A stretch of 64,000 bases of DNA, from contig CALKXT010000018.1 of NCBI GenBank assembly GCA_938003685.1, positions 4,921 through 68,920 of the forward strand. The letters run 5' to 3'. The notes below the pieces were generated by a model that did not search any database, was not told the DNA's origin, and saw nothing but the letters and a program-made list of their open reading frames with translations. Made by a program: the position numbers and the translations under genes. Source of the DNA: an uncultured Sulfitobacter sp. GTDB lineage: Bacteria > Pseudomonadota > Alphaproteobacteria > Rhodobacterales > Rhodobacteraceae. This document shows, in pieces, positions 52,278 through 57,967 of the stretch (position 1 is its first letter; every line of letters starts with the position of its first letter).

Positions 52278-52634
52278 TCACATCGGTTTAGACAATTCGA
52301 CCTCACTGCCACCGTCGACACTGGTGTAAAAACAACTACGTCGTCCAGTGTGACAGGCGGGCCCGGTTTGGCGCACCATGATCAGCAGACAATCGCGGTC
52401 ACAATCAAAGCGTAGATCAACCAATTCCTGAACGTGTCCACTGGTTGCACCTTTGATCCAGAATTCTTGGCGTGAGCGGCTCCAATAGGTCACGCGACGG
52501 GTTTCAAGGGTTTGTGCAATGCTCTGTGCGTTCATCCACGCCAGCATCAGCACCTCCTTGGTTTCTTCATCCTGCGCAATTGCAGGGATCAGCCCGGCTT
52601 CGTTAAAGGTCAAACTTGATGGATCAAATGCCAT
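52278..52634 (-). CDS. hisI: phosphoribosyl-AMP cyclohydrolase
   Basis: [32 protein letters not shown]. Confidence 0.96.
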
Positions 52635-52714
52635 GGTCCGGCACCTCGCTGAAAAGTTTTTTGCATCTTTGGTCTGGGGGCTTATGTAGGCATTGAAAGA
52701 CAAAAGGAACAGCC

Positions 52715-53176
52715 ATGTCGGGCGACACTGATCTGATCAAACTATATTCAGCGCGCATTTTGGCGCTGGCCGCGGATATTCCGCATCTGGGTCGCCTTGA
52801 GGCGCCAGATGCAACCGTTAAACGCCGCTCTCCCTTGTGTGGGTCGACCGTTACTGTGGATGTTGTGGTTCAAGACGGCCATTTGGCGCAATTGGGCCAG
52901 GATGTGAAAGCCTGTGCTTTGGGCCAAGCCGCCGCTGCCGTGACAGGTGCAGCAGCTTTAAACGCAACAATACAACAGATCGAAACAGCGCGGGATCAAT
53001 TGCGCGCGATGTTGAAGGACAAGGGCCCAGTCCCAGATGCGCCATTTGACGGGTTTGAAGTTTTAACCCCTGCTGTTGAATATAAAAACCGGCACGCATC
53101 TATCATGTTGAGTATCGAGGCAATTGCCGAAGCGATGCAGAAATCACAGGTCATTGATAATATTGACAAAATGTAA
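52715..53176 (+). CDS. NifU/IscU N-terminal-like Fe-S scaffold family protein
   Basis: [22 protein letters not shown]. Confidence 0.8.
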
Positions 53177-53324
53177 GCCAACTACTCACCCATCTTACAT
53201 CCGTGGCTTGGCTCTGCATCTCGAGATGTAGGACATAGATCGTTTGAAGGTTGGAGGTTTAAGGTTAAACGAAGCACCGTGTCGTTTCTTTTACAGGCCT
53301 AACGCCATGGCTGGCTTACAGCAC

Positions 53325-53362
53325 AAAAAAAACGCCGCACATCCCGGCTTGGGATGGCGGCG
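53325..53362 (-). terminator. intrinsic terminator of the small peptide transcript
   Basis: cgccgc/gcggcg stem with inner atccc/gggat and 8 T on the minus strand. Confidence 0.75.
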
Positions 53363-53500
53363 CAGGAAAAGCGTTCCTCATGTGGGACCCGGAAGTATCT
53401 GGGGGAAAACCCCGAACCGACATAAGACAGGCAGTGTCAGTCGGTTGCATCAATTTGGGACGGATGCATCAGATAAGCGGCATGAGAGCGCAGGCAGAAA

Positions 53501-53629
53501 TCAAACAAAAGCAGGCAGATGTAGTCCGACAAAAAGCATCACAATCAAAGCCGCTGCACCAATGGCATCTTGCAAGATTGTATCTTGCGACCGGGTTGCG
53601 ATGGTCTTGAGTGTCTTGAGCGTTGTCAT
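53501..53629 (-). CDS. 42-aa hydrophobic peptide under a LexA box
   Basis: MTTLKTLKTIATRSQDTILQDAIGAAALIVMLFVGLHLPAFV; GGAGAG RBS. Confidence 0.75.
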   Translation of the reverse strand: MTTLKTLKTIATRSQDTILQDAIGAAALIVMLFVGLHLPAFV

Positions 53630-53684
53630 TCTATCTCTCCGTCTTTGTTGCACCTTTGTTCTCATTTTATTAACCCCATGTAAA

Positions 53685-53699
53685 GAACTAAATGAGAAC
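53685..53699 (-). promoter_or_regulatory. alphaproteobacterial LexA (SOS) box
   Basis: GAAC-TAAATGA-GAAC (GTTC-N7-GTTC on the minus strand). Confidence 0.75.
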
Positions 53700-53726
53700 A
53701 TTTGCGAACAAAGTGGCTTTCCCAGA

Positions 53727-57967
<4,241 letters not shown>

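Follow-up and report, generated by a model that had tools for sequence, protein, structure and literature searches.

Organization of the Locus

The window analyzed in this work is a stretch of 64,000 nucleotides from an uncultured Sulfitobacter sp. of the family Rhodobacteraceae, and the unit described here lies between recG (53727..55817, minus strand; 696 aa, NCBIfam RecG equivalog, 1105 bits) and a convergent gene of 153 aa. The peptide gene starts just after recG, the end of which is 26 nt upstream, and recG is preceded by ligA and ctrA, with ctrA just upstream on the same strand. A previous interpretation, made from the letters alone (the sequence-only reading), had located the gene behind ctrA-ligA-recG, and this location holds beyond the window: in all 30 related loci that were read, recG adjoins the unit directly upstream in the same orientation, which makes it the conserved left border. 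The stop codon of ligA and the start codon of recG overlap by 4 nt (55814-55817), and the two genes are probably one operon. No terminator is found between recG and the unit.

When the coding (minus) strand is followed from the stop codon of recG, the first element is a GTTC (53706..53709), separated by six bases from a perfect LexA-type GTTC-N7-GTTC (box 1, 53685..53699), so that the two start 10 nt apart (GTTC-N6-GTTC). Box 1 abuts a -35-like TTTACA (53679..53684), after which come approximately 11 plain bases, an A-rich stretch ending in TGA and a second LexA-type box with one mismatch (box 2, 53647..53661), which is inverted with respect to box 1 and reads GTTG-N7-GTTC on the plus strand, that is, GAAC-N7-CAAC on the coding strand. 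A Shine-Dalgarno sequence, GGAGAG (53635..53640, minus), stands five bases ahead of the ATG (53629) of a 42-codon ORF (P0001; 53501..53629, minus; codons 53504-53629, stop 53501-53503). The remaining 175 nt or so are structured sequence on the same strand, divided into an RNA tail (53364..53500, minus), defined by folds, covariation and the covariance model R1, and an intrinsic terminator (53325..53363, minus), a GC-rich stem of 12 pairs followed by eight T, in which 94% of cells are paired. A simple promoter and terminator scan called nothing at the locus, and missed even the obvious terminator at 53325..53363.

The sequence-only reading had recognized the repeats in their plus-strand form, as GAAC-N7-GAAC (53685-53699), a further GAAC (53706-53709) and GTTG-N7-GTTC (53647-53661), and all of them are present where it placed them, as is the short ORF just downstream, with its ribosome-binding site 5 nt before the ATG. 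What has been clarified is the strand: the gene is on the minus strand, and hence box 1 is a GTTC-N7-GTTC on the coding strand and box 2 is the inverted element.

Reality and Conservation of the Peptide Gene

The first search returned 31 homologues of 40–43 aa, all of them unnamed. When whole genomes were searched with a profile, 246 of the 300 genera examined in this GTDB family had the peptide, in one copy. A wider profile collected 1626 clusters (among the names are Sulfitobacter, Falsiruegeria, Rhodovulum, Sedimentitalea and Pukyongiella), all of which are named "hypothetical protein" and lack any Pfam domain. Four genera with no profile match still carry, after recG, an ORF of 38–45 aa with a single predicted helix, and these diverged ORFs keep a D-x2-G...L..P pattern, the boxes and a TTGACA-like -35. 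The presence of such copies indicates that the profile figure of 82% is too low and that the unit comes closer to being universal in the family.

The start codon, 18–20 codons ahead of an invariant Asp, is conserved in all 26 genera read, as is the linkage to recG, and a GGAG-like site precedes it in related loci. Across 26 genera, entropy is 0.89, 0.52 and 1.43 at codon positions 1, 2 and 3, respectively, and 47% of the codon differences are synonymous; as a matter of sequence variation, this is the pattern of a translated sequence under purifying selection. The 42-codon ORF is, on these grounds, almost certainly a real translated gene. Two other frames over the region were discarded. A 66-aa frame from an ATG at 53701 corresponds to an in-frame extension that is not conserved and overlaps the operators, and a 164-aa ORF on the plus strand is antisense noise, given that the coding signal is in the minus frame.

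Searches of Pfam (E up to 10) and NCBIfam with the 42-aa and 66-aa products yielded no meaningful match; a hit to Vir_act_alpha_C (E 0.13) falls on the non-conserved extension of the 66-aa frame and was dismissed. In the ESM Atlas the peptide retrieved its own "hypothetical" clusters and no other relative, and an SCO1431-like lead from the same source was weak (0.75) and was rejected. No description of this gene was found in the literature, and the annotation of Dinoroseobacter shibae used in a study of the LexA/CtrA network shows a 400-nt unannotated gap after recG (PMC6473078). The proposal that this is an uncharacterized gene for a small membrane protein is thus borne out in silico, by conservation, coding-type variation and the lack of a named family. 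Conservation in relatives, which the sequence-only reading had singled out as the first thing to look for, extends to both the ORF (the 246 of 300 genera mentioned above) and the boxes (26 of 26 genera).

The SOS Boxes and the Promoter

It is established that GTTC-N7-GTTC is an SOS marker in Alphaproteobacteria (PMC3323433). The motif alone, however, is not significant in a sequence of this length: one perfect copy is seen in the window and 1.43 are expected by chance. In the whole genome there are 77 matches on both strands, versus 181 for the same pattern read backwards, a difference that may stem from base composition or from selection against stray LexA sites. A perfect box precedes, at a distance of 27–75 nt, each of seven genes of this genome: recA, lexA, uvrA, uvrD and the genes for an IMS-family (imuB/dinB-like) polymerase, an MmcB-like repair protein and a radical-SAM protein. 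A weight matrix was built from these seven canonical boxes (recA/lexA/uvrA/uvrD/IMS/mmcB/radical-SAM), leaving the peptide site out, and it ranks box 1 15th and box 2 85th among approximately 6.8 million genome positions. High-scoring SOS-type boxes were also seen in intergenic positions (C30:15645, C192:1506, C111:1790, C22:376 and C35:6707), adjoining non-classical genes (e.g., aldose 1-epimerase) or unidentified short ORFs, and these genes may be further members of the regulon.

Neither box varies in its tetramers in any of the 26 genera compared (100% identity), and every one of these genera keeps a spacing of exactly 38 nt between box 1 and box 2. The third GTTC is at the same spacing in 23 of the 26 (columns -10 to -7 conserved 88–100%), and the TTTACA (columns 15–20) is conserved 81–100%. 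Columns outside the motifs, namely the 11 bases after the -35 and everything after box 2, fall to 35–65% identity, and 5' UTRs range in length between 12 and 62 nt. Invariant boxes between drifting flanks constitute a phylogenetic footprint, and not inertia. In more distant genera the -35 takes the forms TTGACA, TTGACT and TTGCAA, and of 12 more distant loci 11 carry a perfect box (inverted in locus L064) and the twelfth a box with one mismatch.

The promoter can be described as having three parts: box 1 abutting the -35-like TTTACA, the inverted box 2 and the third GTTC. It shares with recA the layout of a direct box followed by an inverted one, and the flanks of box 2 match those of the inverted box of recA; in the recA promoter (C84:66387-66428), 6 nt separate a direct GTTC-N7-GATC from the inverted perfect box that comes after it. 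In the lexA promoter (C27:44549-44569), the likely -10, TAGAAC, is 17 nt after TTGACA and overlaps the gene's own box. In the peptide promoter no -10 hexamer of good quality is recognizable; we infer its anatomy, in which TTTACA would serve as the -35 and box 2, by analogy, probably covers the -10 and the transcription start.

These repeats could also be something other than LexA operators, i.e., sites for another factor or part of the promoter architecture, in which case the peptide would be a constitutive membrane protein co-expressed with recG. The chance expectation of about 1.4 lone GTTC-N7-GTTC per 64 kb is compatible with this, and so is the possibility of read-through from recG, as no terminator separates the two. 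Against it are the invariance and fixed spacing of five GTTC/GAAC tetramers across the 26 genera (23 of 26 for the spacing of the third GTTC), the occurrence of the same extended motif at recA, lexA, uvrA and uvrD in this genome, and the result of a recG-anchored search, in which a perfect box within 300 nt after recG appeared in none of 28 other alphaproteobacterial families (28 loci, all taken from genomes other than one flagged as unpublished). Such an origin of the repeats is very improbable. The gene is, in all likelihood, LexA-controlled, as rank and invariance suggest, and the promoter of its own with LexA-type operators that had been proposed for it is upheld in silico by the matrix rank of 15 and the conservation in 26 of 26 genera.

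The Encoded Peptide

The peptide consists of two halves, a basic amphipathic N-terminal half and a transmembrane C-terminal half that ends three residues before the stop. This agrees with the basic N-terminus and hydrophobic C-terminal helix that had been noticed in the translation: there is a hydrophobic segment of 21 residues, and AlphaFold2 predicts one continuous helix from residue 3 to residue 41 (pLDDT 90), which includes the conserved polar N-terminal half of 20 residues. The transmembrane helix has no charged face, and the only residues of this kind in it, D21 and H37, are near its two ends. The combination of a basic N-terminal half and a late hydrophobic segment suggests, according to the positive-inside rule, a tail-anchored peptide with a cytoplasmic N-terminus.

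Three residues, T17, D21 and G24, never change in an alignment of 130 unique sequences, and conservation is at least 90% at K8, R13, S14, L18, Q20, A22, A25, L28, V30, M31, L32, L36, H37, L38 and P39; among the latter, K8, R13, L28, L32, L36, H37 and P39 are nearly invariant. Conservation of at least 90% extends to 15 of the 21 transmembrane positions, and the few variable ones recur every three to four residues. The near-complete conservation of the helix, together with that of the putatively cytoplasmic half, argues for a specific protein partner, and the balance tips slightly toward binding of a membrane protein rather than formation of pores. That this membrane protein is a component of the divisome is conceivable, although we consider it a minority expectation. 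When FtsW (389 aa, 94 alignment rows) and the peptide (26 rows) were modeled as a complex, the score was 0.02 against a mark of 0.32, which speaks neither for nor against binding. The ftsW gene itself appears on two contigs of the assembly (C10:4810-5646 and C110:331-1446), and 295 of 296 residues agree between the copies (99%). On C10 the gene is truncated where the contig ends, and murG follows it; the duplication looks like an assembly overlap and not a paralogue.

The Structured RNA Tail

The tail (approximately 175 nt including the terminator) follows the peptide ORF on the same strand and is present in a single copy. Its folds are consistent in 24 genera: a single-stranded C/U-rich leader comes first, then a long-range closing stem formed by CUCAUG and CAUGAG. 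Within this stem lie two or three hairpins with CUGUCCC, CUGCCUG or CUGCCUC in their loops, and a conserved bulge and the terminator come after it. In individual folds, 66% of the bases of the C/U-rich motifs are unpaired.

RNAalifold on the raw MAFFT alignment recovered the terminator only, and the long-range stem comes from single-sequence folds projected onto the alignment. The stem shows compensatory changes (e.g., CUCAUG/CAUGAG, CUCGUG/CACGAG, CUUAUG/CGUAAG and GUCCUG/CAGGAC), and in the alignment 5 of its 10 base pairs have both partners substituted; in the whole model of 24 pairs 90% of cells pair. Covariation is 0.217, compared with 0.129 ± 0.011 in shuffles (0 of 500 reach the observed value) and 0.055–0.111 in slid controls. 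The covariance model R1 finds exactly one copy in this genome (53325-53507, E 1e-31) and one copy in 104 of 149 genera. In approximately 60 genomes with both coordinates available, the RNA starts 0–140 nt (mostly less than 10) after the stop of the peptide, on the same strand, and the tail is kept in genera whose peptide is too diverged for the profile to recognize (G017 and G029). An Rfam scan of 52500-54500, with E up to 1, gave no match, and the tail thus represents a structured RNA family that is absent from Rfam.

No promoter or general terminator lies between the ORF and the tail, so both are presumably carried on a single transcript. At four loci (L025, L013, L006 and L016, of genera G046, G253, G284 and G190, respectively) an extra hairpin or T-run occurs 0–60 nt after the peptide stop; at L025 this is a GC hairpin followed by a T-rich run, between ORF and tail. 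The extra hairpin may be a partial terminator that uncouples the peptide message from the tail.

The unit joins a conserved ORF and a conserved structured non-coding domain, as in a dual-function RNA. A structured 3' region had previously been listed as an item separate from the peptide gene, a division that does not stand, since the RNA is linked to the ORF across genera and is an obligate part of the unit. The obligate tail widens the range of possible mechanisms and, being foreign to known SOS division inhibitors, raises the idea that the RNA, and not the peptide, could be the main effector: an SOS-induced riboregulator, either dual-function or derived from a 3' UTR, whose C/U-rich loops (CUGCCUG, CUGUCCC) would base-pair with target messages at their G-rich ribosome-binding regions or would titrate a protein that binds RNA. 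A separate, accessory or unrelated role in the membrane would then fall to the peptide, e.g., the tuning of a sensor kinase (CckA, for instance) or of a transporter. The covariation, the exposure of the motifs, the single copy always directly 3' of the ORF and the retention of the tail where the peptide has diverged are all in keeping with this idea. On the other hand, the ORF is under clear purifying selection, so the peptide is not a by-product, and the structured 3' end may merely shield a short message from exonucleases. We regard an RNA-centered function of this kind as unlikely.

Distribution Outside the Family

A profile of 26 orthologs, which matched 3 of 3 genomes of the peptide's own family, produced a single marginal match (E 0.009) in approximately 397 alphaproteobacterial genomes outside it. 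Likewise, tblastn of the peptide found nothing in 72,556 plasmids or 50,697 phages. Within the genomes surveyed, the unit is specific to the family Rhodobacteraceae and nearly family-wide. The single copy, the fixed position after recG and the absence of matches in those plasmids and phages point to a core chromosomal gene rather than a mobile toxin.

Predicted Occlusion of the Ribosome-Binding Site

Within 53501-53650 of this ortholog, the final codons of the ORF can base-pair with the Shine-Dalgarno region and with the transcript's 5' end (AACAAAG, which belongs to box 2). Opening of the ribosome-binding region is predicted to cost 13.1 kcal/mol, compared with 5.8 kcal/mol in synonymous-codon controls (1 of 40 reached the native value). 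The effect exceeds the control mean in only 16 of 26 orthologs, and is in the top 5% of controls in 7 of 26, including this one; occlusion of the ribosome site is not general among the orthologs. It was considered whether the Leu-Pro codons near the stop hold an RNA motif under selection, and the notion was rejected, given that these codons vary among genera and the occlusion test is mixed.

Occlusion as predicted for this ortholog is a trait more typical of the messages of type I toxins. It has to be considered, consequently, that the unit encodes an SOS toxin similar to TisB or DinQ, which would oligomerize in the inner membrane and dissipate the proton-motive force, leading to dormancy, while the structured message, tail included, would keep translation low until processing. 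The costly opening of the ribosome-binding region agrees with such a toxin, as does the combination of LexA-type boxes with a very small hydrophobic peptide, known from tisB and dinQ (PMC12648545). Several observations oppose it: Pfam returned no toxin family at E up to 10; the gene is single-copy and strictly syntenic, with no plasmid or phage match; and a divergent or antisense partner gene would seem to lack room, as recG ends 26 nt upstream and the only conserved RNA, the tail, is 3' of the ORF in the same orientation. In addition, the transmembrane helix has no charged face, the conserved polar N-terminal half of 20 residues is unlike known type I toxins, and the occlusion is shared by only part of the orthologs. 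A toxin of this type is, in our estimation, a rather unlikely outcome.

A Proposed Mechanism

The family Rhodobacteraceae comprises the marine roseobacters and the model organisms of Rhodobacter, Cereibacter and Paracoccus, and has a textbook LexA system. To our knowledge, no factor that couples DNA damage to cell division is known in these bacteria, and we know of no occurrence of SidA or DidA outside Caulobacter. No damage-to-division checkpoint factor for Rhodobacteraceae was found in the literature, and a search for SulA gave nothing above the cut-off in 61 genomes of the family, with the E. coli control detected.

With SulA not found in the genomes searched and no described checkpoint factor for the family in the literature, a brake on division similar to SidA is the most economical guess. 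The best explanation we can offer, a tentative one held with somewhat less than even confidence, is that the locus is a self-contained SOS unit of the Rhodobacteraceae that includes such a brake, on division or on the envelope. The division role is assigned by analogy, as homology to SidA, DidA or any named family was undetected. From LexA binding and induction by damage to membrane topology, target and division block, we infer the following course of events. In undamaged cells, LexA dimers would occupy the two operators, one abutting the -35 and the second, which begins 38 nt further downstream, covering the -10 and the start, and both together would shut the promoter, occluding RNA polymerase on both sides. 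DNA damage would lead to RecA-stimulated self-cleavage of LexA and leave the promoter free. The resulting transcript, of approximately 325 nt, would encode the 42-residue tail-anchored inner-membrane peptide and carry the folded RNA domain of approximately 175 nt. The transmembrane helix would bind a membrane protein of division or cell-wall synthesis, and septation would be delayed until repair is done; meanwhile, the RNA tail would stabilize or tune the message, or serve as a linked riboregulator.

A bolder version, which we consider improbable, is that of an SOS effector with two arms, in which the peptide stalls the divisome (or modulates the nearby CckA-CtrA relay) and a riboregulator with several C/U-rich loops, delivered by the same LexA-controlled transcript, reprograms the translation of cell-cycle or envelope messages. 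If true, the Rhodobacteraceae would have in this unit their long-missing damage checkpoint, which would also be the first dual-function RNA under LexA control.

On sequence criteria, the unit is the best candidate for a damage-induced membrane effector in the family. It is unannotated or "hypothetical" and yet nearly universal in Rhodobacteraceae, with operators conserved as well as those of recA. It is also relevant to the biology of gene transfer agents, since LexA and CtrA jointly control their release in this family (PMC6473078).

Comparison with Known Systems

The closest parallel is SidA of Caulobacter crescentus, which, in the work of Modell et al. from 2011, is reportedly an SOS-induced inner-membrane division inhibitor of 29 aa that acts on FtsW/FtsI. 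Both are alphaproteobacterial, with a GTTC-N7-GTTC operator, a tiny inner-membrane peptide with a single helix (here predicted) and a single chromosomal copy, and the peptide would fill the same gap, considering that SulA was not found in the Rhodobacteraceae genomes searched. No relationship between the two was detected, as judged from the peptide profile and family databases. Moreover, the peptide described here is longer (42 aa), with a conserved cytoplasmic half of 20 residues, a fixed position next to recG and an obligate structured RNA tail. SidA is discussed in PMC4211646.

DidA, YneA of Bacillus subtilis and SosA of Staphylococcus aureus are small membrane division inhibitors induced by damage (PMC4211646, PMC13396833, PMC6851548). 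They share with the unit a common logic, which for our peptide is a proposal: damage induces a protein that crosses the membrane once and targets late components of the divisome. They are, however, unrelated to it in sequence, larger (71–105 aa) and endowed with extracytoplasmic domains, and DidA is SOS-independent.

The TisB/IstR-1 and DinQ/AgrB pairs of Escherichia coli are SOS-induced type I toxin systems (PMC3567139, PMC12648545). The resemblance lies in the small hydrophobic peptide, the putative LexA control, the extensive structure of the message and, in this ortholog, the predicted occlusion of the ribosome-binding site. In contrast to those systems, the unit has no family match, no evident antisense or divergent RNA gene and no charged helix face, and it is a core gene throughout its family instead of a patchy one, not found on plasmids or phages.

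Dual-function RNAs, such as SgrS/SgrT, RNAIII/delta-haemolysin and SR1/SR1P, have been reviewed (PMC12310071), and they resemble the unit in combining a conserved small ORF under purifying selection with a conserved structured non-coding domain with exposed repeated motifs, on one short transcript (as deduced here). The difference is that the non-coding domain is 3' of the ORF in our case and may act only in cis; LexA control, moreover, would be unusual for the class. Compared with the systems in the literature, this SOS-type small membrane protein, as it appears from its genomic record, is set apart by its family-wide conservation, its linkage to recG and its obligate structured RNA tail.
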